A stretch of 52,740 nt of DNA from Candidatus Poribacteria bacterium. Lineage in GTDB: Bacteria; Abyssobacteria; SURF-5. The position numbers and the translations under genes were made by a program. The notes under the pieces were generated by a model. It did not search any database and was not told the origin of the DNA. It saw only the letters and a list, made by a program, of their open reading frames with translations. This document shows positions 6,918-31,674 of this stretch, piece after piece. Location: assembly GCA_016215705.1 (NCBI GenBank), contig JACRIR010000004.1:1-52740 (forward strand), read 5' to 3'. How positions within the stretch are numbered: position 1 is the first letter of the stretch; every line of letters starts with the position of its first letter.

Positions 6918-7526
6918 CTTTGGGGAAAAGACCCCCGATAGCGTACCAGTCTCCCCTCCTAAGTGTATTACAATATATATTTTACATCATGCGAGCCAAC
7001 CTGTCAACGCGAGCACAATGATTTTGCAGAAATCTGCTTGACGGAATCTTTCCTCAAAGATGCACAATGAACGACGGCTACAAGACGTTTCAGCAAAGAG
7101 GAAGCCTTAGCTGTTACTGGTTTTGCGGCGTGACCTAACCAGGTTGTGGGGTGCGTTCATCTTCTTCCACAACCCCTTGTATGCTTGTCATACATACTGG
7201 ATCGGAGATGTAGATAATGGAGATTCGTGGCACATATCTTGCTTTAAGTGCAGTATAATACGTCACTTGCGCCTTGGCGGCACAAGTGTGACAACAGGAA
7301 AGGGATCGCTTAGCTCCATATGGATCAAGGGGTTGGGAGAGACCGACAGATCATTTCAGTAGAAAAAAAGTCTTTCCGTTCAGCCACCGGGTCGGCAACG
7401 AAGGGACCGGTAATGAACGAAATTGACCGGCATCCATGCCTACAGGCAGCGATTGTAGGAACACACAAGATTCAGGAAGCTTTCTACCGGGGTCTTGAGT
7501 GAAATGAGGAAAATGTCTCGGCGCGT

Positions 7527-8621
7527 GTGTCTCGACGCGAGTGTCCGGGACAGTCACCTATGGTTGAAGCGCTGAACGTATTATTGGGTTGCGATGTCGA
7601 CCCGGACCGTCCTCGTTACGGAGGCGCGCGGTATGACACGCGCGACGATCAACTGACGTGGCGCAGCATAAGCGAGGGCATTCAACTGCTTCAGCAGGTC
7701 TTGGATGGAATCGGTATCCAGGCCGGTGTCAAGCCCAAGGTTATCTTTTGTCTCCGGGCTGACACCCAGATGCGAGATATTTATGGGGACGCAGCATGGC
7801 CAATCACGAAATATGCAGACCTTTGGCGCTCGCTCGAACAGGACGGCCATGAGCTTGCATGGCATCCACATCTTTGGCGTTGGAGCAACGAATCCGGATG
7901 CTGGTATCAAGAGACAGAGGATGAGAATTGGATTTCCGAATGCCTCGAGACCGGACATGCCGGATTCACTAAGGCACTTGGAAAAACTCCGGTTACTTGC
8001 CACATGGGCTGGACGTTTCACAACAATGTTTCAATGAGAAGAATCTCCGAGTTGGGTCTAAGAGTCGATTTCTCCGGCTGCCCGGGTGTTTTCTTTGGAG
8101 GTGGGCCGGGGAGCGCGGGGACTGTTTTCGACAACAAGATTGACTGGTTGGGAACGCCGCTGCGCTGGTATCGCCCATCGGAAGTTGACTACAGGCGTCC
8201 GGCGGGCGGGGGGGAGGCCGGATTATCCGTTGTGGAGATTCCAAAGTTCACGACTCGCTCGGGCGTCTTAAGAAAAGTCAAGGGCCTCGCGGCGCGCGGG
8301 AAAAGAGCGCCGGGCACAGGCGCAGCGACTGCCGCTTTCTTGCAGATAACGTCCCTTCCGATGCTTTATTCGCGAGTCATTGCAGAGCGGCTTGCCTGCC
8401 GGGAGGCCGATCCTTTCTTTGCGACCTATTTTCACCCTGACGAACTGCTTGCCGACCGGCCGCGGTCCGCGAAGAATTTTCTGTATTCCCTTGCGAATCT
8501 GGAGAAGAACGTGAAAGGGTTAGTGCGAGCCGCGAGACAAGACGGCAGAGAGGTTTCTTTTGTCACCGGCGCTGAGGCGCTTGAATATATGGTTGGCGGA
8601 ACAAGAAACAGTGGCGTTTAG
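7527..8621 (+). CDS. Hypothetical protein, possibly a metal-dependent carbohydrate esterase / deacetylase-like fold
   Basis: 364-aa ORF with coding-like composition and His-rich motifs (HELAWHPHLWRW). I cannot assign a family from sequence alone. Confidence 0.35.
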   Translation: MSRRECPGQSPMVEALNVLLGCDVDPDRPRYGGARYDTRDDQLTWRSISEGIQLLQQVLDGIGIQAGVKPKVIFCLRADTQMRDIYGDAAWPITKYADLWRSLEQDGHELAWHPHLWRWSNESGCWYQETEDENWISECLETGHAGFTKALGKTPVTCHMGWTFHNNVSMRRISELGLRVDFSGCPGVFFGGGPGSAGTVFDNKIDWLGTPLRWYRPSEVDYRRPAGGGEAGLSVVEIPKFTTRSGVLRKVKGLAARGKRAPGTGAATAAFLQITSLPMLYSRVIAERLACREADPFFATYFHPDELLADRPRSAKNFLYSLANLEKNVKGLVRAARQDGREVSFVTGAEALEYMVGGTRNSGV

Positions 8622-8691: not shown

Positions 8692-9693
8692 ATGGCTGAA
8701 GCAAAGATTCTGGTGGTTGATGACGAACAGATCATCGTGGAACTTCACAGAAAGCTTCTTGAGAAACAAGGCTATCGCGTGATCATGGCTTCCAATGGCC
8801 GCGAAGCCCTCGAGAGAGTCCTGACTGAGAAGCCTGACCTTGTGCTCACCGACGTCTTCATGCCCGAGATGGACGGGCTTCAACTTTGCGACCAGTTGAA
8901 GAAGGGTGAGCGCACAAACCTCATACCCATCATAATGGCCACTTCAGCCGACGACTTCGACCACAAGATACGCGGCATCGAAACCGGCGCGGATGATTTT
9001 CTCGCAAAGCCTGTCCGCCCAAAGGAGCTTTATGCCCGGGTCAAATCGCTCCTTCGCATCAAGAGTCTCACTGACAGCCTCGACAGCGCCGAGACGGTGA
9101 TATTTTCACTTGCAAACGCGATTGAGGCGAAGGATCAGTTCACCAAAGGGCACACTGATCGCGTATCGTCACTGGCGGTGAGTCTCGGGGAACATATTGG
9201 TCTCAACTCAGATGATATCGGGACGCTCTCGAAAGGCGGCATCCTTCATGATATCGGCAAAATAGGCATCAAAGATACCATTCTCAACAAGCCTGGAAAA
9301 CTGACCGCCGAGGAGTTCGAGGAGATCAAGAAACATCCTGAGACCGGCGAGAGAATATGCCTGCCCCTGCATTCACTCCAACCTGTTCTTCCGATAATAA
9401 AGCACCACCATGAGAAGTATGACGGGAGCGGATATCCCTGCGGTTTTGCAGGAGAACATATTCCGTTGCTGGCGAGAATCATGGCTATCGCCGACGTTTA
9501 CGATGCTCTTACTTCACGCCGCGCCTACCGTGACGCCATGCGTCACACGGAGGCAATGGAAATCCTCAGAAGTGAAACCTCTGACAACAAGTTCGATCCC
9601 CTCCTGTTCGAGAAATTTGAAGAGCTGATAGAATCGCGCGAGGACCTCCGGAAGCTTTTTGATTGCGAACAAATGGCAGCAAAAGGCGCATGA
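8692..9693 (+). CDS. Response regulator with HD-GYP phosphodiesterase output domain (RpfG-like)
   Basis: The receiver has the LVVDDE...D(LVLTD) pattern. The HD-GYP motifs are HTDRV, HDIGK and HHEKYDGSGYP. SD GGAGA is present. Confidence 0.85.
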   Translation: MAEAKILVVDDEQIIVELHRKLLEKQGYRVIMASNGREALERVLTEKPDLVLTDVFMPEMDGLQLCDQLKKGERTNLIPIIMATSADDFDHKIRGIETGADDFLAKPVRPKELYARVKSLLRIKSLTDSLDSAETVIFSLANAIEAKDQFTKGHTDRVSSLAVSLGEHIGLNSDDIGTLSKGGILHDIGKIGIKDTILNKPGKLTAEEFEEIKKHPETGERICLPLHSLQPVLPIIKHHHEKYDGSGYPCGFAGEHIPLLARIMAIADVYDALTSRRAYRDAMRHTEAMEILRSETSDNKFDPLLFEKFEELIESREDLRKLFDCEQMAAKGA

Positions 9694-19538: not shown

Positions 19539-19722
19539 GACCGGCCTGGTTGGCAGAAGACACCCCGAACATATCCGCCCGACCGGCGCGGGAAACCTTT
19601 TACCATTAACACTGTGCAGAAGTCAAGGCTTTGTCCTTTCGAATGAGTGAACCAACTTGTCCTCATCGGCATGTTCATTGCGTCTCCTGCCCATCAGTCC
19701 CGAAATTTCAGTATTTTGCCTA

Positions 19723-19751
19723 TTGACAGGAACCGGTTTGTATACTATAAT
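19723..19751 (+). promoter_or_regulatory. Consensus sigma-70 promoter (TTGACA-17 bp-TATAAT) reading into the gvp locus
   Basis: TTGACA at 19723-19728, an exact 17-bp spacer, and TATAAT at 19746-19751. Confidence 0.55.
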
Positions 19752-19975
19752 TATATGTATTGCTGGTAAGTGAAACAAGGGCCCGGCATGGAACAGCGCC
19801 CTCGGCTGCGTTTGATGTACTGAACCTGAATCCGTCAGAACCTTATGCGAAACTATACCGGAGGCGGATATACTACTGTGCCGTGTCCTCCTGCTGTAAG
19901 CGCGCAGCAAGCACAGATGCAGTTTATACCGAACCAAATTATTCGGCTTTCGCAGTCCGGTCATATCGCTTCGGG

Positions 19976-20617
19976 ATGAGAACGCTGCTCTATATTCCCA
20001 TTATTCACACCAGCGCCGACATGGGCTCGCTGGCTGACCCGGTTCGAAGAATCACCGTTGAAAGACTTGGGTGGAGAAGGTGGAAAAATAATGCCGAGGC
20101 AATTGATCAGTTGTGGCAACTGATTCGAGGGGAAATCGAGAATCTGGACCTGCCTTACTCAAAGGTGCGCCTCTATCAGGACGGACTCCCCGTTTGCGGG
20201 CGCGAGGTCGCCATCGTAGACGATTTGGCCAGGGCGGAAAGCCCTAATCACAAACTTCTCTTTTATCTGATGGGGCGGGGGGCAACCCTGATGGGAACAG
20301 AATCGCCCGATCTTCTGATGGAGGAGTATTCTCTGCTTCAAAGGGTCGTGGCCTCCCGGGGGTTGGCGGGCGCCGCCAGGATCGAACAACAGCAAAAAGC
20401 GTTACGACAAAGCTTGTTGGAGCGGCGGGACCGATTCATTGCGGCTCGAATCAATGAGACTCTCGGCGATGGGGAAACAGGGGTCATTTTTCTGGGTATG
20501 CTTCACTCGCCTCAGCGTTGGCTCGAGCCGGATATCAAGGTTCTCTATCCGGTTTCGACAATCGCCTCGCTCAACAAACAAGGGGCCCGCAAGCCCGAAG
20601 GGAAGAAGGCGCAATAG
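19976..20617 (+). CDS. Hypothetical protein, first gene of the gvp regulatory block
   Basis: First in-frame ATG (MRTLLYIPII...). The ORF-track TTG at 19760 coincides with the predicted transcription start, so I reject it. No recognisable domain. Confidence 0.35.
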   Translation: MRTLLYIPIIHTSADMGSLADPVRRITVERLGWRRWKNNAEAIDQLWQLIRGEIENLDLPYSKVRLYQDGLPVCGREVAIVDDLARAESPNHKLLFYLMGRGATLMGTESPDLLMEEYSLLQRVVASRGLAGAARIEQQQKALRQSLLERRDRFIAARINETLGDGETGVIFLGMLHSPQRWLEPDIKVLYPVSTIASLNKQGARKPEGKKAQ

Positions 20618-22071
20618 TGGCACGTCCCAAGGTTCTGATAGTGGATGACCAGCAGGATATGCGCTGGACAATTCGGATGATTGTTGAGAAGGCGGAGATG
20701 GATGCCATGGAGGCAACCGACGGCGATACTGCCCTCCGGATGATCCGGTCCTCATCGCCTGACGTTGTTCTGCTGGATATCCGGATTCCCGGCATTGACG
20801 GCTATGAGGTGCTGCGCTGCGCAAAGGCGCTGAACAGTAGCCTGCCGATCATCATGATCACCGGATTCGGTGGCATTAGAGACGCCGTCCAAACGCTGAA
20901 GGCCGGCGCATGTGACTACCTGCACAAACCCTTCCAAAATGACGAGCTTGTTCTGACAATCCGCAGGGCGCTGAATGGAAACCGTCTCAAACGAGACGGC
21001 GGATATAATGGAGGCTGCAAAGAAGCGCATCTATCCCTTCACGAACAAATGGGCTACAGCGCCAGAATTCAGTCCCTGGCTTCAGAAGTGACACGCGTTG
21101 CTTCCACAGATTTTTCTGTCCTCATCGTCGGGGAAACCGGAGTGGGTAAGGAAGTCGTCGCCCAGGCGCTCCATGCCCAAAGTCGTCGACACTCCGGCAT
21201 GCTTGTTGCTATGGATTGCGGAGCAATCCCGGACACACTGATCGAAAGCGAACTGTTCGGCCACGAGAAGGGGGCATTCACAGGCGCCGACCGCGTAAAG
21301 CAGGGGAAGTTCGAGGTGGCCGCGGGTGGGACCCTGTTCTTCGACGAGATATCTAATCTCTCGCTGACGTTACAGACAAAATTGCTCCGAGTGCTACAGG
21401 AAAGGCAGTTTTATCGGGTCGGCGGCAACATGGCTATCAGGGCGGATGTCCGTATTGTGACAGCGACAAACCGAGACCTCTCCTCCCCGTCTGAGGAGTC
21501 CTCGTTCCGCAGCGACCTCTATTATCGCCTCGCTGAATACGTCATCCATGTTCCGCCCCTGCGTGACCGCAAGGAGGACATCACATTTCTCGCAAACCGC
21601 TTCTTGAAGATCACAAATCTCGAGATTGGCAAGCGTGTCAGCGAAATATCGGAACCAGCGATGGAATTGCTCGCAGGATATGATTGGCCGGGTAACGTTC
21701 GGGAGCTTCGAAACGTTGTGCGGCGGGCTGTATTATTGGCGAGCGATGTCATAGTCCCTCAGCATTTGGGTCCACTTAGACTGATGGGCACGAATGTCCT
21801 CCCATCGACACTATCGGTCGAATTCGTGAACACGGACAGAATGTCCTTCAAAGAAATCATGCGCCACAATGCCATGGACGTCGAAAGAGCTTTACTCCGC
21901 CGGGTGCTGGAACGCACTAAGGGGAACAAGGCTGAGGCCGCACGCATTCTCAAGATAGACTACAAGACCATTCATACAAGAATAAAGAAATATGCGATTT
22001 CGGTGAAGGGAGACAATCATGACAATGAGGAAAAGCAGTTCCGATGCCGGCAAGGGAGCGAGGTCCTCTGA
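20617..22071 (+). CDS. Sigma-54-dependent response regulator (NtrC family): receiver + AAA+ + HTH; GvrA-like
   Basis: GTG start with a TAGTG overlap and SD GAAGGGAAGAAGG. The receiver has VLIVDDQ...D. The AAA+ domain has GETGVGKE and the GAFTGA motif (ELFGHEKGAFTGA). A C-terminal Fis-type HTH is present. Confidence 0.85.
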   Translation: MARPKVLIVDDQQDMRWTIRMIVEKAEMDAMEATDGDTALRMIRSSSPDVVLLDIRIPGIDGYEVLRCAKALNSSLPIIMITGFGGIRDAVQTLKAGACDYLHKPFQNDELVLTIRRALNGNRLKRDGGYNGGCKEAHLSLHEQMGYSARIQSLASEVTRVASTDFSVLIVGETGVGKEVVAQALHAQSRRHSGMLVAMDCGAIPDTLIESELFGHEKGAFTGADRVKQGKFEVAAGGTLFFDEISNLSLTLQTKLLRVLQERQFYRVGGNMAIRADVRIVTATNRDLSSPSEESSFRSDLYYRLAEYVIHVPPLRDRKEDITFLANRFLKITNLEIGKRVSEISEPAMELLAGYDWPGNVRELRNVVRRAVLLASDVIVPQHLGPLRLMGTNVLPSTLSVEFVNTDRMSFKEIMRHNAMDVERALLRRVLERTKGNKAEAARILKIDYKTIHTRIKKYAISVKGDNHDNEEKQFRCRQGSEVL

Positions 22072-22552
22072 GGGTGGCATGGGGGGACTCTTCAAAGGTT
22101 TGTCCGATTTATTGGAGAAGCTGGGAGACCTTGCTGACAAAGGACAAGAACTGCAGAAAACGGGGGAATTCCGGAAGGCGGTTGGGGCGAACGACATCAA
22201 AGGTGTCTATGGCTTCAGTGTCAAAGTGGGCCTTGGCGGCGAAGGAGTGAAGGTTGAACCCTTTGGCAATATCCACAAGGACGAAGCTTCCGGTGAGACC
22301 ATCGTGCAAGAAGTGCGTGAGCCGATAGTTGACGTTTTCGAGGAAAAAACACATGTGCTGGTCGTGGCCGAGATGCCCGGCATAGGTACTGATAACCTCC
22401 AGTTGGACCTGAAGGACGATATATTGACCATCTCGGCAAATAGGGAAGATCGGAAATATCGCAAAGAAGTGCTGCTTCCCGGAACCTTCACCCGCGACAA
22501 AATGACGGTCGCTTGTCATAACGGCGTCGTAGAGATCAGATTACGCAAGTAG
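22019..22552 (+). CDS. Hsp20 / alpha-crystallin family protein (GvpH-like)
   Basis: The C-terminal alpha-crystallin domain is VDVFEEKTHVLVVAEMPGIGTDNLQLDLKDDILTISANRE...GVVEIRL. SD GAAGGGA is present. Confidence 0.75.
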   Translation: MTMRKSSSDAGKGARSSEGGMGGLFKGLSDLLEKLGDLADKGQELQKTGEFRKAVGANDIKGVYGFSVKVGLGGEGVKVEPFGNIHKDEASGETIVQEVREPIVDVFEEKTHVLVVAEMPGIGTDNLQLDLKDDILTISANREDRKYRKEVLLPGTFTRDKMTVACHNGVVEIRLRK

Positions 22553-22563
22553 GGGGTTAAGAA

Positions 22564-24708
22564 ATGGCCACGAGCGACGGCGCAACGCTCAAGCTCAGGG
22601 TGACGGAAGCCCTCAGCAAAGACGTGGGGCGGGCATTCGTCCGGATGGACCCGCAGGACCTTGAGAAATTGCATGCGCAAATCGGCGACATAGTGGAAGT
22701 CAGCGGCAAGCGACAGACGGTTGGAAAGGCGATGCCTGCGTACAAGGAGCAGCGAGGTCAGTCCCGGATCCAAATGGACGGGCTCGCGCGGGAGAATGCC
22801 GGCGTCGGCCTGGACGAACACGTGCGGGTTCGAAAGGCCGAGACGCGGAACGCCACTCGCGTCCAGCTTGCTCCCACAACCGTAACTCCGGGAAACCGGG
22901 ACCTGAAATACATTGGGGCGCTTCTCGACGGCTTGCCTGTCGTTGAGGGTGACCGGATTCGGGCTGCGCTGTTCGGCAGCCGATGGGCCGATTTTGTCGT
23001 TGAAAGCGCCACGCCCAAGGGGACGGTGCTCATTACTCCTTCGACACAACTCGTCATAGGCAAGGCAGCCGAAGAAGCCAGGACGGGAACGATTTCTTAT
23101 GAAGATGTCGGGGGACTCAAACCTCAACTCCAACGTATACGCGAGATGATCGAACTGCCTCTTCGGTACCCAGCCGTATTCCAGCGCCTCGGCATCGACG
23201 CCCCTAAGGGAGTTCTTCTTTATGGCCCTCCCGGTTGTGGCAAAACGCTTATTGCCCGCGCCATTGCGCACGAAACGGAAGCCGACTTCTTCTCGGTCAG
23301 TGGTCCCGAAATTATTCACAAATTCTACGGCGAAAGCGAAGCGCATCTCCGGAAGATTTTCGAGGAAGCCGCCCGCAAAGGGCCAAGTATTATTTTTCTC
23401 GACGAGATCGACGCCATTGCTCCTCAGAGAGAGAAAGTCGTTGGGGACGTGGAGAAAAGAGTGGTCGCCACCCTCCTGGCGCTGATGGACGGTCTTAATA
23501 AACGGCAAAACGTAATTGTCATTGCTGCAACAAACATACCTCAAATGCTCGACCCTGCGTTGCGCCGCCCCGGCCGGTTCGACCGCGAAATATCTATTCC
23601 GATACCCGATCGAAATGGACGTCGGCAAATATTGGAGATTCACAGCCGTGGGATGCCGCTGGCCGACGATATTCGACTTGATCATCTCGCCGAGATCACG
23701 CACGGCTTTGTTGGAGCCGACTTGGAGGCGTTGTGCCGCGAAGCGGCCATGATCCGCCTGCGTCACATCATCCCCGACATTGATTTTGCCATGACCAGTA
23801 TTCCCTATGATCTGTTGGCGAAGCTTGAAGTGAAGATGGAGGACTTTCTTGAAGCTTTGCGCGAAGTCGAGCCGTCAGCGATAAGGGAGGTATTTGTCGA
23901 AGTCCCGGATGTACGCTGGCAACACCTTGGCGGTCTTAGCGAGGTAAAGGCCCGGCTGATCGAGGCTGTCCAGTGGCCACTAAAATATCCGCAACTTTTC
24001 GAGAGCGCGGGGATCAAGCCTCCAAAGGGCATCCTTCTATCGGGACCACCGGGATGTGGCAAAACCATGCTGGCCAAAGCCCTTGCCACTGAGAGCGCTG
24101 TGAATTTTATTTCAGTAAAGGGCCCCTCGCTTCTCTCCAAATGGGTGGGGGAGTCGGAGAAAGGGGTACGCGAGGTTTTCCATAAAGCCAGGCAGGCGGC
24201 GCCGTGCATTGTTTTCTTCGACGAAATCGACTCTTTGATTCCTGCCCGTGGCGGTCTCTCCTCGGATTCACACGTCTCCGAGCGGGTCCTCAGCCAGTTT
24301 CTGGCCGAACTCGACGGCATCGAGGAACTCAAGGGAGTTCTGGTGCTAGGCGCCACCAATCGAGCAGATTTGCTGGACTATGCCGTCCTCCGGCCGGGAC
24401 GCTTTGACGAGGTTGTGGAGATTCCCCTGCCTGACGAAAAAGAGCGTTGCGAGATATTTGAGGTGCATTTGCGTGGCAAACCGTTAGACGCGGAGGTCGA
24501 CGCAAAACAGTTGGCAGCCATGACCGATGGACTCAGCGGCGCAGATATTTTCGGCATTTGCCATAAGGCCGCATTGGAGGCCGTGCGAAGGGCCGTGGCA
24601 AAAATCGGCGACAGCGGAAAGAACCAGGAAAACATCGGCGTGCTTATTACAAAGGATGACCTGCTCCAGGCCGCGACGCGAGAGGCGAGGACAACAACGA
24701 ATCGCTGA
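22564..24708 (+). CDS. CDC48/VAT-like AAA+ ATPase (N-domain + D1 + D2)
   Basis: N-terminal double-psi-barrel-like region, then two Walker A sites (GPPGCGKTLIARA and GPPGCGKTMLAKA), each with the SRH region. 714 aa. SD AGGGGG is present. Confidence 0.85.
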   Translation: MATSDGATLKLRVTEALSKDVGRAFVRMDPQDLEKLHAQIGDIVEVSGKRQTVGKAMPAYKEQRGQSRIQMDGLARENAGVGLDEHVRVRKAETRNATRVQLAPTTVTPGNRDLKYIGALLDGLPVVEGDRIRAALFGSRWADFVVESATPKGTVLITPSTQLVIGKAAEEARTGTISYEDVGGLKPQLQRIREMIELPLRYPAVFQRLGIDAPKGVLLYGPPGCGKTLIARAIAHETEADFFSVSGPEIIHKFYGESEAHLRKIFEEAARKGPSIIFLDEIDAIAPQREKVVGDVEKRVVATLLALMDGLNKRQNVIVIAATNIPQMLDPALRRPGRFDREISIPIPDRNGRRQILEIHSRGMPLADDIRLDHLAEITHGFVGADLEALCREAAMIRLRHIIPDIDFAMTSIPYDLLAKLEVKMEDFLEALREVEPSAIREVFVEVPDVRWQHLGGLSEVKARLIEAVQWPLKYPQLFESAGIKPPKGILLSGPPGCGKTMLAKALATESAVNFISVKGPSLLSKWVGESEKGVREVFHKARQAAPCIVFFDEIDSLIPARGGLSSDSHVSERVLSQFLAELDGIEELKGVLVLGATNRADLLDYAVLRPGRFDEVVEIPLPDEKERCEIFEVHLRGKPLDAEVDAKQLAAMTDGLSGADIFGICHKAALEAVRRAVAKIGDSGKNQENIGVLITKDDLLQAATREARTTTNR

Positions 24709-24740
24709 CCAAACAAGAGTTTTCCTGCGGGTTTCTGAAT

Positions 24741-25283
24741 ATGCCGAGATCTATTCCTCCAAAGACTATGTCGAACGTGCGCCGGCAAGCGCGCAGCCGT
24801 GACCGTTCCAGGTCGCGGCCTGGCGGCGGCCTGTATCTGAAACTCGGTGGATGTGGTTCACAGGTTTCCCGACATCGGCCTCCCACCGAGACGAAATTCA
24901 GCGCTTCGGTTTTCCGGAAGCCCCGCAGTTGGCGATTCCAAATAAAGCCGCTGTTCAAGAGGATAAGAGGACTGGGGATCGATGTCTTTCATGAGGCCGA
25001 GGAAGTGCTCATCGTCATCGACCTAGGAGGGTTCCGCCGCGGCGATGTTTCGTTGAGTATGACTCCGGAGAAATACTCGGTATATGCGAGACAAGGCGAT
25101 GAGGAGTTTAGGGAAGAAATCGTTTTGCCGCCCGACGTGGATGTCGAGCGGTCCGTGGAGAACCTGAGAAACGGAGTCCTCGAGATTCTGCTCCCAAGGA
25201 AAAAGGGAGATACACAGGAGGTGAAATCTCATGAAGACCTGCCAGCAAGGAAGAAGCCAGACAATACTAATCGTAGAAGATGA
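24741..25283 (+). CDS. Second Hsp20-like (GvpH-like) protein; the N-terminus is uncertain and may be frameshifted
   Basis: The C-terminal half (IDVFHEAEEVLIVIDLGG...VLEILLPRK) is paralogous to the alpha-crystallin domain of 22019-22552. The N-terminal 75 aa is Arg-rich low complexity with no SD. Confidence 0.45.
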   Translation: MPRSIPPKTMSNVRRQARSRDRSRSRPGGGLYLKLGGCGSQVSRHRPPTETKFSASVFRKPRSWRFQIKPLFKRIRGLGIDVFHEAEEVLIVIDLGGFRRGDVSLSMTPEKYSVYARQGDEEFREEIVLPPDVDVERSVENLRNGVLEILLPRKKGDTQEVKSHEDLPARKKPDNTNRRR

Positions 25284-25650
25284 TAAGAATGTGTATGACA
25301 CTCTTTCACAACTGCTTCGCGGCGAGGGCTACCGAACAGTCTGGGCTGAGAGTGGCGGCCAAGCGATTAAGACAATGGCGTCTGTCGCCCCTGCCCTAAT
25401 AGTCCTTGACTTGATGTTGCCCGACCGTCACGGTATCGAGGTGTTGGGCCAGATCAAGTCTATGACAAGAGACGTGCCAGTCATCATTCTGACCGGCTTT
25501 GGCTCAACGGATACGGTTCGAAGCGCCATGGAGATGGGAGCTTTTGATTACCTTACGAAGCCTTCCGATCTGAGTGAGTTTTGTGGAGTAGTTCGGGCAG
25601 CCCTCGAATCTGAACGCAGGTGTGGAGCCGCTTCACCGGCGGCGCAATAG
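25231..25650 (+). CDS. Stand-alone CheY-like receiver protein
   Basis: ILIVEDD...D(LIVLDLMLPD)...K motifs, SD GGAGG. Confidence 0.75.
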   Translation: MKTCQQGRSQTILIVEDDKNVYDTLSQLLRGEGYRTVWAESGGQAIKTMASVAPALIVLDLMLPDRHGIEVLGQIKSMTRDVPVIILTGFGSTDTVRSAMEMGAFDYLTKPSDLSEFCGVVRAALESERRCGAASPAAQ

Positions 25651-25664
25651 TCAAGGAGTGCACA

Positions 25665-26513
25665 ATGACCGACAACGGCCACAATCCGGAGGCCGGACGC
25701 GATCACGCCGAGGGCATCTATTTGTTCTGTTTTGCGCGTCAAAATGCAGCACAGGCTGTTGGGCTTCGCGGTCCGGATGACCGGAGTCCCGTGTCACAGC
25801 GGCAATTCAAAGATATCGTGGCGGTGCTGAGTAAGGTTCCTCTCGGCGAGTGGATCGGCCCTTCCTCAGAAGCAAACCTGCAAGACCTGAGTTGGGTGGG
25901 GCCTCGAGCTTGTCGACATCAAGAAATAATTGAACAGGCAATGCGATATTCCTCAGTCTTGCCGGCAAGATTCGGGACCATTTTTTCTTCCTCAGAACGA
26001 CTAGAGGATACGTTCTGCTCTCACTATGACTCGATATCCGAATTCCTCGATTATGCGGCCGATAAGGAAGAGTGGGCGCTTAAGGGCCTGTTGGATACAG
26101 CGAAGGCCGAGGATCACCTGCTTGCCCGTGGCTCTCGATCCACAAATCTCCCGCCATCTTCGGGGGCACGATATATGATGGAGAAGCAGCTTCGGATCGA
26201 GGCCAAGAGGAAAATGAAGACGTGGGCAAAAACACTAAGCGATACTATTGTCGAGGAACTTCAGCCTCTTGCGGTGGAATCACGCGCCTTGAAGACTTTG
26301 TCACGGTATGCATCGGGAAGAGAATTGGATGTGGCCTTCAACTGGGCCTTTCTCTTGACATGTGAGGGCCGAGATGGTTTCCTCTCAAGCGTAGAACGTC
26401 TCAACGATGACTACTCCCGGCATGGACTCGAACTCGAAATATCGGGGCCGTGGCCACCCTATAGTTTCTGCCCCTCCCTTTCGCATGACAAGGAACCCGA
26501 AAAGATCGAGTGA
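25665..26513 (+). CDS. gvpF: Gas vesicle protein GvpF/L family (paralog 1)
   Basis: The N-terminal YLFCFAR block and overall pattern match the two other paralogs at 26556 and 32180 and the GvpF/L family. SD AAGGAG is present; the ORF track start is 25620. Confidence 0.65.
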   Translation: MTDNGHNPEAGRDHAEGIYLFCFARQNAAQAVGLRGPDDRSPVSQRQFKDIVAVLSKVPLGEWIGPSSEANLQDLSWVGPRACRHQEIIEQAMRYSSVLPARFGTIFSSSERLEDTFCSHYDSISEFLDYAADKEEWALKGLLDTAKAEDHLLARGSRSTNLPPSSGARYMMEKQLRIEAKRKMKTWAKTLSDTIVEELQPLAVESRALKTLSRYASGRELDVAFNWAFLLTCEGRDGFLSSVERLNDDYSRHGLELEISGPWPPYSFCPSLSHDKEPEKIE

Positions 26514-26555
26514 CCACTCAGCGAGTGGCGGAGGATTTGGCGAGGGAGGGATCAA

Positions 26556-27362
26556 ATGAACGGGCCTTTCCTTGTTTATGGAGTCATCCCGACTAAACCG
26601 CTCGCACCCCCTGTGCCCTCCGCAGGAGTTGAAGGGCTTCCAGTCGAGTTGATCGAGAATGATGGGATAGGGGCAGCGGTCTCGCGTATTCATGCTATTG
26701 ACCCTGCTTTGTTGACGCCTGAGATTGGCCGTGTTCTGGCCTATGAAAAGGTAATCGAAGCATTGCACCGACTGAGCGCAGTCTTGCCTATGCGCTATGG
26801 GTGCGTTATGAAGAGTGAATCTCACGTCACCGAATTCCTCAGCAAACGCGGCCAGGACTATCAATACGCCTTGACGCATCTGGAGGGGTGCTCCGAGTAT
26901 GCGATCCGAATCCTGCTGCCACGCGGGAGCCACGAACCGCCAAACGGTGGACGGAGTATCGAAAATAGGGATCGAGCCCCCTGTCCGCCAGAGTCTCACT
27001 CCGGCAGGATGTATCTGAAAAACCGAAAGGAATACTATGCCCTGAAGGATCAATCTGCCGAGGAGGAGACTGAAGCGGTCGAGCGCTGCCGGGCCGCTTT
27101 TGCGCAGATGTACGTCGAGTGGAGGTCGGAATATTCGCCGGTTTGCCCGGCAGAGATAGCTCGCAAGCGGGTGAGCGGAGAATCCCGTAGATTTCGTGTT
27201 TCACCTGCGGCAGGAACGTCCCTGGTATCACTATATTTCTTGGTAGCAAGGGAAATGGAACAGTCCTTCATAGAACGCTTCAGGCGGCTGTGCGACACGA
27301 AATCCGCAAAGATGCTCATGACGGGTCCCTGGCCCCCATATAACTTTGTTCCACGCATGTAG
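26556..27362 (+). CDS. gvpL: Gas vesicle protein GvpF/L family (paralog 2)
   Basis: FLVYGVIP...RIHAID...VLPMRYG pattern, SD GAGGGAGGG. Confidence 0.65.
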   Translation: MNGPFLVYGVIPTKPLAPPVPSAGVEGLPVELIENDGIGAAVSRIHAIDPALLTPEIGRVLAYEKVIEALHRLSAVLPMRYGCVMKSESHVTEFLSKRGQDYQYALTHLEGCSEYAIRILLPRGSHEPPNGGRSIENRDRAPCPPESHSGRMYLKNRKEYYALKDQSAEEETEAVERCRAAFAQMYVEWRSEYSPVCPAEIARKRVSGESRRFRVSPAAGTSLVSLYFLVAREMEQSFIERFRRLCDTKSAKMLMTGPWPPYNFVPRM

Positions 27363-27376
27363 TCCGGAGACAGGAA

Positions 27377-28888
27377 ATGACACAGCATGGCGCATCACTC
27401 ACGAACAATCACGGGACCGCATCCACGGATACCCTCGTTTCTGAGGGCCGCTATGAGAAGCTTTACAGAATGCTGATGGATGCTACTCCCTCATCGGTTC
27501 TTTTGCTCGACCAGGGTCTGCGGGTAGTTGTGGCCAACCATAACTTTCTCGAGAAAGCTCAGAGGTCCGAACATGACACCATAGGCCGAAGGCTCAACGA
27601 AGTATTCCCCATCGTCATCCTCCGCGAAATGGAGTTGGAGCAATGGATACAGCAGGTTTTCCAGAAAGGAGAGCCTGTGCGAGGCAAGCGCATGCGCTAT
27701 AGGGCGCCCGGGGTTGCGGACCGGATTTATTATTACAGTCTCATCCCTGTAACGTGGCATAGAAAGACCGAGAACGTGATGTTGCTCATGGATGATGTCA
27801 CGGAACAGGTGCGCCTGGGTGAGGAAGTGCTGCAGGCGGAACGCCATCTGGCAAGCATAGTCGAAAGCGCCAGCGACATTATTGTCTCGACCGATACTGA
27901 AGGACGCATCATGACGTGGAACAAGGCGGCTCAAGAGGCTACTGACTACTGTCTGCAGGAAGTCGCACACCATCCATTTTTTGATTTCTTTGCTTCAGAC
28001 TGCAAGACCGCAGTGAAAGGAGCCCTCGAGAATCCAGAGAGCCCCGGAAGGTCCGCATACACTGAGTGGAACCTCAAGACGAAACGTGGCCACGAGATAC
28101 CCGTCTCATGGGTGTGCTCCAGGATGAGGGATGGCAGAGGCAAGGTTCAAGGGATTGTGGCGGTCGGCAGGGACCTCACCGAACGCCGTAAACTGGAGAC
28201 CCAGGTGCTTCAGTCGCAGAAGCTGGCCGCACTGGGTGTCATGGCCGGAGGCATTGCCCACGAGATTCGAGGACCTCTGGCGATTGCTTCTTCGGCGGCG
28301 CAGTTTCTGATGGAAGATGAGGTCAGCCCTTCGCTCCTGATAGAGTGTACTCAGAGAATTCATCGAGGGATCCAGAGGGCGTCCACTATCATCGAAGACC
28401 TGCTGAGATTCTCGCGGCCCTCCATTCCCAAGAAGCCTACTGAAAGAGTCGATCTCGCGCTGGTTGTGAAAGATACCATCGCGCTTGTCCACAGCCAGGC
28501 TCAGATCGAGAAGGTCAATGTGACCGTCAAGGCGCCCGCTGCGCCGGTAATTGTTACAGGCGTTGCCAGCATGCTTCAACAGATGGTGATGAACATCCTA
28601 CTGAATGCATTTAACGCTCTGTCCGATGACGGCGGCAGAGTGGACGTTATCGTAAGTGACGAAGGCGAGTTTGCGGTCTTGAAAGTAACCGATAATGGCT
28701 GCGGCATTCCGCAAAGCGAGATTAACAAGATATTCGACCCGTTCTACACCACAAGCCCGCCGGGGAAAGGCACAGGATTGGGTCTTTCTCTTTGCTACTC
28801 CATCGTTAGACATCACAATGGAACTATTCAGGTTGAGAGCACGGAAGGAGCAGGCACCTCCTTGATCGTCCGACTGTCCTTGTCGTGA
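27377..28888 (+). CDS. PAS-domain sensor histidine kinase (GvrB-like)
   Basis: Two PAS-like regions, an H-box (HEIRGPLA), and N / G1 / G2 boxes (DNGCGIP, GTGLGLS). Confidence 0.85.
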   Translation: MTQHGASLTNNHGTASTDTLVSEGRYEKLYRMLMDATPSSVLLLDQGLRVVVANHNFLEKAQRSEHDTIGRRLNEVFPIVILREMELEQWIQQVFQKGEPVRGKRMRYRAPGVADRIYYYSLIPVTWHRKTENVMLLMDDVTEQVRLGEEVLQAERHLASIVESASDIIVSTDTEGRIMTWNKAAQEATDYCLQEVAHHPFFDFFASDCKTAVKGALENPESPGRSAYTEWNLKTKRGHEIPVSWVCSRMRDGRGKVQGIVAVGRDLTERRKLETQVLQSQKLAALGVMAGGIAHEIRGPLAIASSAAQFLMEDEVSPSLLIECTQRIHRGIQRASTIIEDLLRFSRPSIPKKPTERVDLALVVKDTIALVHSQAQIEKVNVTVKAPAAPVIVTGVASMLQQMVMNILLNAFNALSDDGGRVDVIVSDEGEFAVLKVTDNGCGIPQSEINKIFDPFYTTSPPGKGTGLGLSLCYSIVRHHNGTIQVESTEGAGTSLIVRLSLS

Positions 28889-28907: not shown

Positions 28908-29285
28908 ATGACCCGCAAACACGAGATGATCCTGATCGTTGATGATGAACCGGATATGTGCTGGGCCCTCGAGAGAATTCTCAGAGGGATGGGTTTCGCC
29001 ACGGAAACCGTCGGCGACGCGCAAAAAGCGCTCGGGCTGGTCAAACGGACCCGCTTCAGATTGGCCTTCCTCGACGCCAAGCTTCCCGATATGGAGGGTA
29101 TCGACCTGGCAATATGCCTGCAAAAAGCCATTCCGCCCGTGCCCGTCGTGCTGGTTTCGGCTTACTTCTATGAAGATGATGCGCAAGTCCAGCAGTGGAT
29201 CAGAGACGGATTCATATGTCATTTTGTGAGCAAGCCCTTTGTGATCAACCGCGTGCGGGAAGCGGCAGCCATGGCCATCAACTAA
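28908..29285 (+). CDS. Receiver-domain response regulator (GvrC-like)
   Basis: ILIVDDEPD...D(AKLPD) pattern, 125 aa. Confidence 0.7.
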   Translation: MTRKHEMILIVDDEPDMCWALERILRGMGFATETVGDAQKALGLVKRTRFRLAFLDAKLPDMEGIDLAICLQKAIPPVPVVLVSAYFYEDDAQVQQWIRDGFICHFVSKPFVINRVREAAAMAIN

Positions 29286-29320: not shown

Positions 29321-29356
29321 TATGGAACTTTCACCCTATATGGAACGCCTTCCATA
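29321..29356 (+). promoter_or_regulatory. Candidate enhancer (UAS) for the NtrC-type activator: TATGGAAC direct repeat plus TATGGAA-cgcc-TTCCATA palindrome
   Basis: TATGGAAC occurs at 29321-29328 and 29339-29346. The inverted partner TTCCATA is at 29350-29356. The element lies 110-145 bp upstream of the -24/-12 element. Confidence 0.45.
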
Positions 29357-29464
29357 GATTCTCAGAAAGGATCACCCATCTTCGGTCCTGTCCTCCGACT
29401 GTCTCAAAGTCCTTACCGCTTGTCCCATCCGGTGTTACCGAGATAGATGTTGGTTCGCCGCCAA

Positions 29465-29480
29465 TGGCATACCTATTGCT
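29465..29480 (+). promoter_or_regulatory. Sigma-54 (-24/-12) promoter for gvpA: TGGCAT-accta-TTGCT
   Basis: The GG and GC dinucleotides are spaced exactly as in the consensus TGGCACG-N4-TTGCA. It sits 120 nt upstream of the gvpA ATG, and a sigma-54 activator is encoded in the locus. Confidence 0.6.
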
Positions 29481-29601
29481 TCCTCCGTTGTTACTCTCTG
29501 GAATTTCACAGTTTTGTCCGGATGGGAACGTTGCGGCCGCAGTCGTCATCCCATGGGTTCCAGAAGGATCGCCTTTTGGTGACGGAGGGAGGTGAGAATC
29601 T

Positions 29602-29820
29602 ATGGCGAAAGTACAGAAGTCAACTGACAGCTCCAGCCTCGCGGAAGTTGTGGACCGCATTCTGGACAAGGGCATCGTGATCGATGCTTGGGCGAAGGTC
29701 TCGTTGGTGGGCATCGAGCTCCTTTCCATCGAGGCGCGCGTGGTCATCGCTTCAGTGGAGACCTACTTGAAGTATGCGGAGGCTATCGGCCTGACTGCCA
29801 GCGCCGCTGCGCCGGCCTAA
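29602..29820 (+). CDS. gvpA: Gas vesicle structural protein GvpA
   Basis: 72 aa. [52 protein letters not shown] is a near-canonical GvpA. SD GGAGGGAGG is present. Confidence 0.95.
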
Positions 29821-29847
29821 CCGTTAAGAGTGCACGAAAGCCTGTTG

Positions 29848-29880
29848 CCAGGCGGGGCCTCATATGGTGTCCCCGCCTGG
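29848..29880 (+). terminator. GC-rich hairpin immediately after gvpA (CCAGGCGGGG-13 nt-CCCCGCCTGG); likely attenuator or partial terminator
   Basis: Perfect 10-bp stem read directly from the sequence. There is no strong U-tract. Read-through would reach gvpC/gvpN. Confidence 0.5.
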
Positions 29881-30024
29881 CTTCCGGCTTGGCCTTCGCA
29901 CGTGATCCGGCAGAGATTCCGCGCACAAGGCGCAACCTTATGGGCGCGTCGGCATATCGTCGATCGTGGTCCTGAACATATAATCGATCTTTGTCCCAAC
30001 CGCAATGGGAGAAGGAGTGGCAAA

Positions 30025-30573
30025 ATGGGGCCTCTGACACAAGATTTGGCGCGGCTGCGCGATGAGATTACATCCGCGCGCGATGCGCGAAAGCAGCTCA
30101 TTGGCAGTGTGAAGGAGTTCGTCGGCAACCTCAAGGAATCCGTCGACGATTTGACATCGAACGCGGCTGCAATGCGGGCCGATTTTCGCAAAACCCACGC
30201 CGCGACAGTCAGGAAGGCGAAGGCGGAGCTTTCGGGATGCGTGTCCGACATAAAGCGCAACGTCTCGTCGATGCAATCCGCCTTCCGCAACGCGAACACT
30301 GAGGCGGCCAGAAAGACGAAGGCCGATTGCGCAGCTTTTGCGTCCGGCGTGAGACAGACGGTGGCTGGCATAAAACGGGCGACTGCAAGAACGAGGAAAG
30401 AAGTCGCAGCCGACATCAACGGCGCGCACCGCGCCTGGTTAGGCGCCCGGCCGACACGGATCGAGGTCGTGCACAAGCCCGAGCTCCACCGGACGGAGAC
30501 GGTGGCAAGAGTCGGGAGCCGATCCGAAGAGTCAGAGAAGCGTGTTTCCGCCAAAACCAAGAAGAGGAGGTAA
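30025..30573 (+). CDS. gvpC: GvpC-like outer gas-vesicle protein with about four 33-residue repeats
   Basis: It sits between gvpA and gvpN, the canonical position. An ATG with SD AGGAG is present. The repeats align at a 33-aa period (xxxVxD[LI]xxNxxxMxxxFRxxxxxxxRKxKA). The ORF track start at 29830 lacks an SD. Confidence 0.6.
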   Translation: MGPLTQDLARLRDEITSARDARKQLIGSVKEFVGNLKESVDDLTSNAAAMRADFRKTHAATVRKAKAELSGCVSDIKRNVSSMQSAFRNANTEAARKTKADCAAFASGVRQTVAGIKRATARTRKEVAADINGAHRAWLGARPTRIEVVHKPELHRTETVARVGSRSEESEKRVSAKTKKRR

Positions 30574-30636
30574 TCACATAGTCTCCCCCGAGGCAGTCAA
30601 TATAGGCGCACGAGAACATGCCGTGCATGATGACGA

Positions 30637-31674
30637 ATGGTTAACGACTTGGGAATCGCAAAGGAATCTGTGAAAATGAACCGGGATGGCTTGACGGCGA
30701 GCGCATCGGCGACCACCGTGAGGATTCAGGTAGAGGGTGACGGAATCATGCCGGAACCGAGCGATGAGTTTGTCATGACGCCGCGCCTTGAGGAGCTGAC
30801 TGAACGTGCTCTCACTTATCTGGAAGTGGGATACCCTGTCCATTTTGCCGGTCCGGCGGGAACAGGGAAAACTACAATCGCCTTCCACGTCGCGAGCAAG
30901 CTGGGCCGACCCGTGATCCTCATTCACGGGGATGACGAGTTTGGCGGTTCCGATCTGGTGGGAAAGGACGCCGGCTACCGCAAGTCAAGACTTGTCGACA
31001 ATTTTATTCATTCCGTTCTCAAAACAGAGGAAGAGATGAGAACGCTATGGGTGGATAACCGGCTCACCACTGCTTGCCAGCATGGTTACACTCTTGTATA
31101 CGACGAGTTTAACCGAACGAGGCCTGAGGCCAACAATGCCCTCTTGAGTATTCTCTCGGAAAAAATGCTCAACCTGCCGAAGCTCCGAACCTCTGGCGAA
31201 GGCTATATGGAAGTGCATCCCAACTTCCGCGCCATTTTCACTTCGAATCCGGAAGAATATGCGGGCACCCACAAGACCCAGGATGCTCTTATGGATCGGC
31301 TCATTACCATCAGGCTCGGCCACTACGACCGCGAGACTGAAATCGCAGTCACAATGGCCAAGTCGGGCATCTCGAAAAAAGATGCCGAAATCATCGTGGA
31401 CATCGTCAGGGAACTGAGAGGTGTCGGCGTAAACAACAACCGGCCAACCATCCGGGCCTGTATCGTGATCGCCAAGGTGCTCGCACATCGTGGAATCCGG
31501 GCGCGGGCGGGCAACCCCGTTTTCAGGCGCATCTGCCAGGACGTGCTAAGTGGAATAGACACAGCCAAAGTCACCTGTGGCGGCCAATCGCTCATGCCGC
31601 AAAAAGTGGATGAAGCCACCCGGAAAGTGGTGCAAGCGGTCCTCAGAACGGATGAAATCAACGAGAAGGAATAG
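30637..31674 (+). CDS. gvpN: Gas vesicle AAA+ ATPase GvpN
   Basis: Walker A (GPAGTGKTT), the CbbQ/NorQ-type AAA core, and gvpN synteny. The alternative start at 30676 (MNRDG) has SD AAGGA. Confidence 0.85.
   Translation: MVNDLGIAKESVKMNRDGLTASASATTVRIQVEGDGIMPEPSDEFVMTPRLEELTERALTYLEVGYPVHFAGPAGTGKTTIAFHVASKLGRPVILIHGDDEFGGSDLVGKDAGYRKSRLVDNFIHSVLKTEEEMRTLWVDNRLTTACQHGYTLVYDEFNRTRPEANNALLSILSEKMLNLPKLRTSGEGYMEVHPNFRAIFTSNPEEYAGTHKTQDALMDRLITIRLGHYDRETEIAVTMAKSGISKKDAEIIVDIVRELRGVGVNNNRPTIRACIVIAKVLAHRGIRARAGNPVFRRICQDVLSGIDTAKVTCGGQSLMPQKVDEATRKVVQAVLRTDEINEKE

Follow-up and report, generated by a model that had tools for sequence, protein, structure and literature searches.

Gas vesicles are buoyancy organelles that have now also become acoustic reporter genes, and, to our knowledge, little is known outside Serratia about how bacterial gas-vesicle clusters are switched on. 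This question is raised by a stretch of 52,740 nucleotides from Candidatus Poribacteria bacterium (GTDB lineage Bacteria; Abyssobacteria; SURF-5; GenBank assembly GCA_016215705.1, contig JACRIR010000004.1, positions 1 to 52,740 of the forward strand), referred to here as the window, in which a sigma-54-type promoter element and an upstream palindrome precede gvpA, the gene for the major gas-vesicle shell protein. What controls gvpA at this locus, and through which sites? The interval ahead of the gene very probably serves to regulate the gvpA structural operon of a gas-vesicle cluster of the GvrA/GvrB/GvrC type, in which GvrA is an NtrC-like activator. Its palindrome, a dyad of the form TATGGAA-N4-TTCCATA(G), is likely to represent a so-far undescribed operator of the GvrA family, forming part of a self-contained sigma-54 cassette that would have moved with gas-vesicle clusters across several phyla.

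The sigma-54 promoter element ahead of gvpA

A sequence-only reading of this region had pointed to a sigma-54 element with correctly spaced GG and GC dinucleotides, and the sequence is as it described: TGGCAT-accta-TTGCT occupies positions 29465-29480 of the plus strand, its GG (29466-67) and GC (29478-79) being 12 nt apart. Ten of the 11 specified positions match the consensus TGGCAC-N5-TTGCW, the remaining one having T in place of C at -21. The element is located in the intergenic interval between the gvrC stop codon (29285) and the gvpA ATG (29602), lies on the plus strand like gvpA, and is separated from the ATG by 121 nt. The GG/GC spacing says nothing by itself; GG-N10-GC occurs in the window at chance level (534 matches versus 562 expected). 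The fuller pattern TGGCAY-N5-TTGCW (11 positions) has two exact matches, at 7228 and 29465, against 0.11 expected, a number reached in none of 100 shuffles, and both sites are intergenic and on the same strand as the genes downstream of them. Among the elements noted in this region, the promoter alone exceeded chance in tests confined to the window.

Related loci were collected by a GvpA scan of species-representative genomes, which yielded 46 loci, and by searching metagenome contigs for the gvrC-like receiver, which yielded 80. The receiver gene stands directly before gvpA in ~65 loci, and dereplication left 52 gvrC-gvpA intergenic regions, the window not counted, or 53 regions when it is included. 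The collections scanned contained no relatives close enough for base-by-base footprinting, the best GvrC identity being 58%, and the exact receiver protein was found elsewhere only on one 8.4-kb Logan contig (run SRR12113407). The best -24/-12 score was at least 13 of 15 in 71% of the 52 related regions, compared with 2.3% of shuffles, and at least 12 in 96%, compared with 12% of shuffles. In 50 of the 52 loci, the element ends 43-90 nt before the ATG, and gvpA loci without gvr genes, such as those of cyanobacteria and Bacteroidota, show lower scores. The matrix scan that had been proposed as a check agrees with the original call: a weight matrix built from the related loci only, and run over both strands of the window, ranked position 7227 first and position 29464 second. 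As judged from this recurrence, the element ahead of gvpA is a real, conserved sigma-54 promoter, and the position of its -12 motif predicts a transcription start at 29491 ± 2.

Two further observations concern promoters of this kind. In one subclade (L066, L080, L085, L087, L093, L104, L109, L116-L119, L121, L124 and L125; L numbers denote individual related loci), the sequence upstream of gvpA is TGGCAYGnTTCTTGGA, with GG at -13/-12 instead of the near-invariant GC, at the same distance from gvpA and with the dyad described below further upstream. The second exact match in the window, TGGCACATATCTTGCT at 7228-7243 (+), which is the top window match of the family promoter matrix, is preceded by two dyads of its own, TGTATG-N5-CATACA at 7178-7194 and GGTTGTGG-N17-CCACAACC at 7142-7174. 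This site faces open reading frames (ORFs) at 7320-7502 (60 aa), 7527-8621 (364 aa, with no Pfam or NCBIfam match) and 8692-9693 (a receiver-HD-domain protein), and no cognate activator for it was seen in the window.

The upstream dyad and its putative binding protein

Upstream of the promoter, the sequence-only reading had described a direct repeat of TATGGAAC and a perfect palindrome that includes its second copy. The two copies are present at 29321-29328 and 29339-29346, and the latter opens the perfect 18-bp palindrome TATGGAA-cgcc-TTCCATA, found at 29339-29356. Within the window, TATGGAAC occurs twice against 0.95 expected, a count reached in 26 of 100 shuffles, and there are eight perfect 7-4-7 palindromes and 45 8-mers repeated within 30 nt. 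Because repeats and palindromes are this common by chance, outside evidence was needed, and the significance of these elements rests on their conservation in related loci.

TATGGAA-N4-TTCCATA with at most two mismatches is present in 41 of the 53 regions, compared with ~0.1% of shuffles, and forms the most conserved island (consensus TAtGGAAtnnaTTCCATAG) in otherwise unalignable intergenic DNA. The consensus built without the window is aaanTAtGGAAtnnaTTCCATAG; its information content is 1.4-2.0 bits per column in the core and 0.1-0.5 bits in most columns of the flanks and spacer. An upstream-site matrix that was likewise built without the window gave its top window match at 29338, with 28.0 bits, the next unrelated match scoring 9.1 bits. 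Across the 1.17 Mb of fetched loci, 44 dyads with at most one mismatch were counted, versus ~0.2 expected by calculation; 36 of them lie within 450 nt upstream of gvpA, and most of the others are found just after gvrC on contigs that end early, slightly beyond 450 nt, or upstream of the gvrA regulatory operon. The last situation occurs in L091 (472-489) and L002 (140-157 and 176-193), a hint that some lineages autoregulate this operon; no dyad precedes gvrA in the window. Taxa carrying the dyad include Desulfobacterota, Terriglobia (in a three-mismatch variant), Phycisphaerales, and the gammaproteobacterium Lamprocystis purpurea (L011), in which it lies upstream of gvpA and no Gvr homologue was detected in the 10 kb upstream.

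The centre of the perfect dyad lies 117 nt upstream of the -26 T of the promoter, and 11 bp separate the centres of its half-sites. This spacing is that of NtrC-type dimers and fits a dimeric Fis-type helix-turn-helix (HTH) domain. In most related loci, the dyad centre is placed 90-136 nt upstream of the -26 T, with clusters near 93, 106, 116, and 126, and in 11 of 44 loci a second, weaker dyad is located 19-22 bp further upstream. The window has such a companion at 29321-29338, 18 bp upstream of the perfect dyad, with three mismatches and 8.4 bits under the family matrix. This half-degenerate dyad accounts for the direct repeat, which is better read as two adjacent dyads, one perfect and one half-degenerate. 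The region therefore displays the features of an upstream activating site, namely dyad symmetry, half-sites one helical turn apart, a location within the usual range of 80-200 bp upstream of the -24/-12 element, and a second weaker dyad. Upstream activating sequences typically lie at such a distance from their promoter, and the position fits activation rather than a repressor site overlapping the promoter. Inspection by eye revealed no convincing match to an integration host factor site between enhancer and promoter.

A candidate binding protein is encoded in the same cluster. The activator gene at 20617-22071 specifies a receiver domain, an AAA+ domain (PF00158, E = 7e-66), and a Fis-type HTH, with the sigma-54 contact loop GAFTGA within ELFGHEKGAFTGA, the Walker A motif GETGVGKE, the receiver aspartate in VVLLDIRIPG, and the helix IDYKTIHTRIK. 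No NCBIfam equivalog could be assigned to it, all scores being below cut-off (e.g., NtrC, 407 versus 559 bits; AtoC, 417 versus 714). According to Pfam, it is alone among the proteins of the conserved cluster in having a recognised DNA-binding domain, and its C-terminal helix GNKAEAARILKIDYKTIHTRIKKY is much better conserved than the region immediately preceding it. Most dyad loci have the helix IDYKT.H[TS]K or one closely resembling it (L002, L006, L008, L089, and L111, with variants in L001, L003, and L091), L030 combines the helix VDYKTLLRK with a variant dyad, TATGGCA-N4-TGCCATA, and the NtrC-type proteins encoded next to gvpA in L018, L025, L027, L035, L128, and L129 have other helices and no dyad. 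Such co-variation of helix and dyad is suggestive, not proof. The conserved 18-bp dyad is probably the GvrA operator. The earlier proposal that these sites constitute an enhancer for the activator encoded at 20617-22071 is upheld by the conservation of the dyad, by its typical geometry, and by the GAFTGA loop and HTH_8 domain of the activator, which is the predicted binder. The literature searched, Serratia included, yielded no description of a GvrA binding site or operator.

Organization of the cluster and comparison with known systems

Pfam and NCBIfam scans reveal one co-directional gas-vesicle cluster in the window, the genes from 19976 to beyond 36633 being on the same strand (Table 1). 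The longer version of the first ORF of the regulatory operon (19760-20617) has no Pfam match, and an ORF visibly similar to 19976-20617, as judged by eye from the translations, precedes gvrA in L002 (219-869). Near the sigma-70-type promoter, a weaker sigma-54-like sequence, CGGCAT-N5-TTGCG, is located at 19667-19682. Among the accessory genes, the segment 24741-25650, between the genes for the CDC48-type ATPase and the GvpF/L proteins, contains two genes in addition to those of the published Serratia operon, one of the Hsp20 family and one for a stand-alone receiver (25231-25650), so that the signalling module comprises three receiver domains and one kinase. Downstream of gvpA, the ORF in the gvpC position has weak coiled-coil matches, no GvpC family match, and a likely start near 30022; gvpN (30637-31674) matches TIGR02640 with 351 bits and is followed by genes for GvpF/L, GvpG, an ArsA-type ATPase, GvpK, and a GvpJ/A-like protein. 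Just past the gvpA stop codon, a GC-rich hairpin without a T-run, CCAGGCGGGG-N13-CCCCGCCTGG at 29848-29880, is situated within the ~200-nt gap before the likely start of the ORF in the gvpC position, and may act as an attenuator or mRNA stabiliser that raises the gvpA transcript over the downstream genes.

Table 1. Coordinates of regulatory elements and genes in the window
Feature	Position	Strand	Evidence or remarks
Distal weak activator dyad TATGGAACTTTCACCCTA	29321..29338	.	Left half perfect, right half degenerate; centre ~-161.5 from predicted start
Proximal perfect activator dyad, predicted GvrA operator	29339..29356	.	TATGGAA-cgcc-TTCCATA; centre ~-143.5 from predicted start
Sigma-54 promoter, -26 to -11	29465..29480	+	TGGCAT-N5-TTGCT; GG = -25/-24, GC = -13/-12
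Predicted start and leader of ~111 nt, Shine-Dalgarno GGAGGGAGG	29491..29601	+	Promoter geometry
gvpA, major gas-vesicle shell protein, 72 aa	29602..29820	+	PF00741; NCBIfam GvpA 135 bits vs cut-off 100
Downstream genes of the same operon: coiled-coil ORF in gvpC position, gvpN	29830..31674	+	
Sigma-70-type promoter TTGACA-17-TATAAT, 12/12	19723..19751	+	Probable promoter of regulatory operon
Conserved ORF, function not assigned, ~213 aa, first gene of regulatory operon	19976..20617	+	Stop overlaps gvrA GTG start (TAGTG)
gvrA-like enhancer-binding protein	20617..22071	+	Pfam Response_reg, Sigma54_activat, HTH_8
Accessory genes: GvpH/Hsp20, CDC48-type AAA ATPase, Hsp20, stand-alone receiver, two GvpF/L	22019..27362	+	Pfam; NCBIfam CDC48
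gvrB-like soluble PAS histidine kinase	27377..28888	+	Pfam PAS, HisKA, HATPase_c; H-box GGIAHEIRGPL
gvrC-like single-domain receiver	28908..29285	+	Pfam Response_reg; DD, Asp in AFLDAKLP, Lys in SKPF

The closest known counterpart is the gvpA1/GvrA/GvrB/GvrC system of Serratia sp. ATCC 39006 (Ramsay et al. 2011; Tashiro et al. 2016, PMC4982088). There, the gvpA1 start was mapped by 5′-RACE (rapid amplification of cDNA ends) behind a consensus sigma-54 site, transcription of gvpA1 requires NtrC-like GvrA together with GvrB and GvrC, and a sigma-70 promoter was mapped for the gvrA operon (PMC4982088). According to the passage of PMC11778176 that cites Hill 2021, a Serratia rpoN transposon mutant has no gas vesicles and no gvpA1-gvpY expression, with gvrA-gvrC unchanged. 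Given these start-site, regulator, and rpoN data, sigma-54/activator control of gvpA is already established for this cluster type, and the window, as far as its sequence tells, is a further example of the known Serratia-type sigma-54/GvrA-controlled gvpA promoter. The regulatory operons of both systems contain an NtrC-type activator, gvpH, an ORF in the gvpZ position (in the window a CDC48-type AAA ATPase, placed by position and domain only), two gvpF-type genes, a PAS kinase, and a single-domain receiver. By domains, the order in the window is enhancer-binding protein, GvpH/Hsp20, CDC48 AAA, the additional Hsp20 and receiver, GvpF/L, GvpF/L, PAS histidine kinase, and receiver (for the Serratia order, see PMC9501494 and PMC4982088). 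The kinase and receiver pair that the sequence-only reading had singled out just upstream of gvpA matches GvrB and GvrC, both of which are required for Serratia gvpA1 expression (PMC4982088), and we infer from synteny and domain architecture that the regulators of the window are orthologous to Serratia GvrA, GvrB, and GvrC.

The two systems also agree in the opening of the structural operon (gvpA, an ORF in the gvpC position, and gvpN) and in having a sigma-54 -24/-12 element before gvpA and a sigma-70-type promoter before the regulatory operon, both predicted from sequence on the window side. There are clear differences as well. In the window, gvpA directly follows the regulatory operon, on the same strand and with no terminator in between, whereas Serratia has the gvpA1 operon first and makes separate transcripts. 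The window additionally has an Hsp20 gene, a stand-alone receiver, and the unassigned ORF before gvrA, and no quorum-sensing input is evident in it.

In enteric bacteria, NtrC acts at glnAp2, a sigma-54 promoter with tandem dyads ~100-150 bp upstream whose half-site centres are ~11 bp apart. The window shares the tandem upstream dyads and an activator of the same receiver, AAA+, and Fis-type HTH architecture, which by analogy would be phosphorylated by a cognate kinase, but it differs in the dyad itself (TATGGAA-N4-TTCCATA versus TGCACC-N5-GGTGCA) and in its target, an organelle operon rather than nitrogen metabolism. In the haloarchaeal GvpE/GvpD system, a cluster-encoded activator likewise governs the gvpA promoter, whereas the system is unrelated, the basal machinery is archaeal, the activator is leucine-zipper-like, and there is neither sigma-54 nor two-component input (contrast in PMC4982088); Pfam scans found no GvpE or GvpD homologues among the window genes. 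The alphaproteobacterial plasmids Methylocella tundrae T4 p1 (L128) and Methylosinus sp. C49 pMSC49b (L129), both from cultured methanotrophs, were considered as cultured relatives carrying the dyad and rejected. They have the order gvrA-gvpF-gvrB-gvrC-gvpA and a -24/-12-like element before gvpA, but lack the TATGGAA dyad, and they differ in the GvrA helix (IDYKTYRTK or MDYKTYRTK) and in the upstream sequence. At its gvrC stop codon, the Methylosinus locus instead carries GGGCATTACCGCCCG-TAAC-GGGCGGTAATGCCC, a palindrome that is both long and perfect.

Proposed mode of control and alternative explanations

What is observed directly is the set of sequence elements, how they are conserved and arranged, and which domains the encoded proteins contain; from these observations, a general scheme of gvpA control can be proposed. 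RNA polymerase containing sigma-54 would bind the -24/-12 element at 29465-29480 and be held there as a closed complex, while dimers of the GvrA-like activator would occupy both dyads, the perfect one at 29339-29356 and its weaker neighbour at 29321-29338. The receiver domain of the activator would be phosphorylated, most likely by the soluble GvrB-like PAS kinase, and one or more GvrC-like single-domain receivers may modulate the flow of phosphate. The activator would then oligomerise, loop to the promoter, and open the complex through ATP hydrolysis and its GAFTGA loop, allowing transcription to start near 29491 and to proceed through gvpA, the gvpC-position ORF, and gvpN to the genes beyond. 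The regulatory genes are probably under the perfect sigma-70-type promoter at 19723-19751. The dyad-binding protein, the phosphorylation route, and the start site in this scheme are modelled on the family paradigm and on Serratia genetics.

Several points weigh against this scheme. It is co-occurrence only that ties GvrA to the dyad, and some clusters with GvrA (L004 and the Methylocella and Methylosinus plasmids) lack the dyad, which is therefore not universal to the family; in L004, the helix is similar (IDYKTIYSK), yet no dyad is found within 450 nt of gvpA. In the window, the distal site is weak and is spaced 18 bp from the proximal one, versus 19-22 bp in relatives. The 121-nt distance from the -12 element to the ATG exceeds that in most relatives; L048 and L049, the closest relatives by GvrC, have long leaders too (157 and 140 nt). 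No RpoN domain was detected among the window ORFs. Finally, the gvrC-gvpA interval contains no terminator-like site and no sigma-70-like promoter.

The last of these points bears on the alternative that survives best, namely that gvpA is expressed largely through read-through from the sigma-70 regulatory operon, with the sigma-54 promoter acting only as a booster. Besides the lack of a terminator-like structure between the gvrC stop codon and gvpA, the single orientation of the genes from 19976 to beyond 36633 and the perfect sigma-70 consensus at 19723-19751 speak for this route. It is opposed by the Serratia rpoN mutant, in which gas vesicles are lost and gvpA1 expression is down in the account given in that part of PMC11778176 (the two operons being separate there), by the conservation of promoter and enhancer, which argues that the sigma-54 route is the selected one, and by predicted folds, in which the mean unpaired probability of the gvpA start region is 0.12 in read-through RNA versus 0.26 in the sigma-54 transcript. 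On balance, we regard read-through as the main source of gvpA expression as possible but rather doubtful. The earlier claim that gvpA expression depends strictly on RpoN and the activator is accordingly retained in part: the conserved sigma-54 promoter and enhancer stand, but the word 'strictly' is unsupported, since read-through from 19723-19751 may occur in a cluster with no terminator between gvrC and gvpA.

The fold predictions involve a 13-nt perfect complementarity between 29352-29364 and 29593-29605, one arm lying at the right edge of the enhancer dyad and the other covering the start codon of gvpA and its Shine-Dalgarno spacer. A match of this length was reached in none of 200 shuffles; it is absent from the 52 related loci, and the difference in predicted start accessibility given above is modest. 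That this pairing silences the translation of gvrC read-through transcripts, so that only sigma-54-initiated mRNA yields GvpA, is improbable, and the same holds for a joint claim combining such silencing with the undescribed GvrA operator cassette. A second anti-Shine-Dalgarno stretch, CTTCCTCCGT, is present at 29479-29488, just upstream of the predicted start; CCTCC upstream of the start is enriched ~2.3-fold over mononucleotide shuffles, and unrelated pentamers such as GAGGA are enriched too. A structured leader or riboswitch in the 111-nt 5′-untranslated region was considered and rejected: the fold of 29491-29601 is not unusual (z = -1.1), and there is no Rfam match in the whole window. By eye, the leaders of L048 and L049 show no obvious similarity to it.

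Another explanation leaves the promoter intact and assigns the dyad to a different regulator, a repressor or global factor whose gene would lie elsewhere; GvrA would then bind a different sequence or act from solution. The GvrA of L004, with its similar helix and missing dyad, is compatible with this explanation, and Serratia gvpA1 is also bound directly by the unrelated repressor SmaR (PMC4982088), so that extra operators are possible on such promoters. We consider it unlikely. The dyad travels with the gvr cluster across phyla, from Desulfobacterota and Terriglobia to Phycisphaerales and Lamprocystis, a range over which conservation of an unlinked regulator would not be expected, and its presence upstream of the gvrA operon in L091 and L002 corresponds to the usual second target of a regulator. 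Its position suits an upstream activating site, unlike that of a promoter-overlapping repressor site, and the GvrA recognition helix co-varies with its presence.

A reading of the palindrome as an RNA hairpin, for instance a terminator or a processing signal ending the gvrC transcript, is very improbable and was rejected. The palindrome lies 54 nt past the gvrC stop codon and could fold into a 7-bp stem closed by a 4-nt loop, but the stem is short and AT-rich, no T-run follows it, and no terminator was called. Moreover, position 3 is G in 14 of 46 sites, whereas its partner stays A in 42 of 46, so that pairing is broken without compensation and it is the bases, not the pairing, that are conserved; in Lamprocystis, the site precedes a gvpA gene for which no Gvr homologue was detected over 10 kb upstream. 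That promoter match and palindrome are both functionless products of chance, as the abundance of 7-4-7 palindromes and short direct repeats and the chance-level frequency of GG-N10-GC might suggest, is scarcely credible, given that both are found again, in the same order and similarly spaced, in dozens of divergent loci with intergenic DNA that otherwise cannot be aligned.

Control of gvpA by a GvrA-like activator acting on a sigma-54 promoter from the upstream dyad thus remains the preferred account. The Serratia design, in which a sigma-70 regulatory operon is combined with an activator-driven sigma-54 promoter for gvpA, is common to many uncultured sediment and soil bacteria. What the present comparison adds is an 18-bp dyad, conserved across phyla, as a candidate GvrA operator, which opens the way to the place where GvrA would bind, to its possible targets beyond gvpA, and to inducible control of gas-vesicle clusters moved to other hosts.

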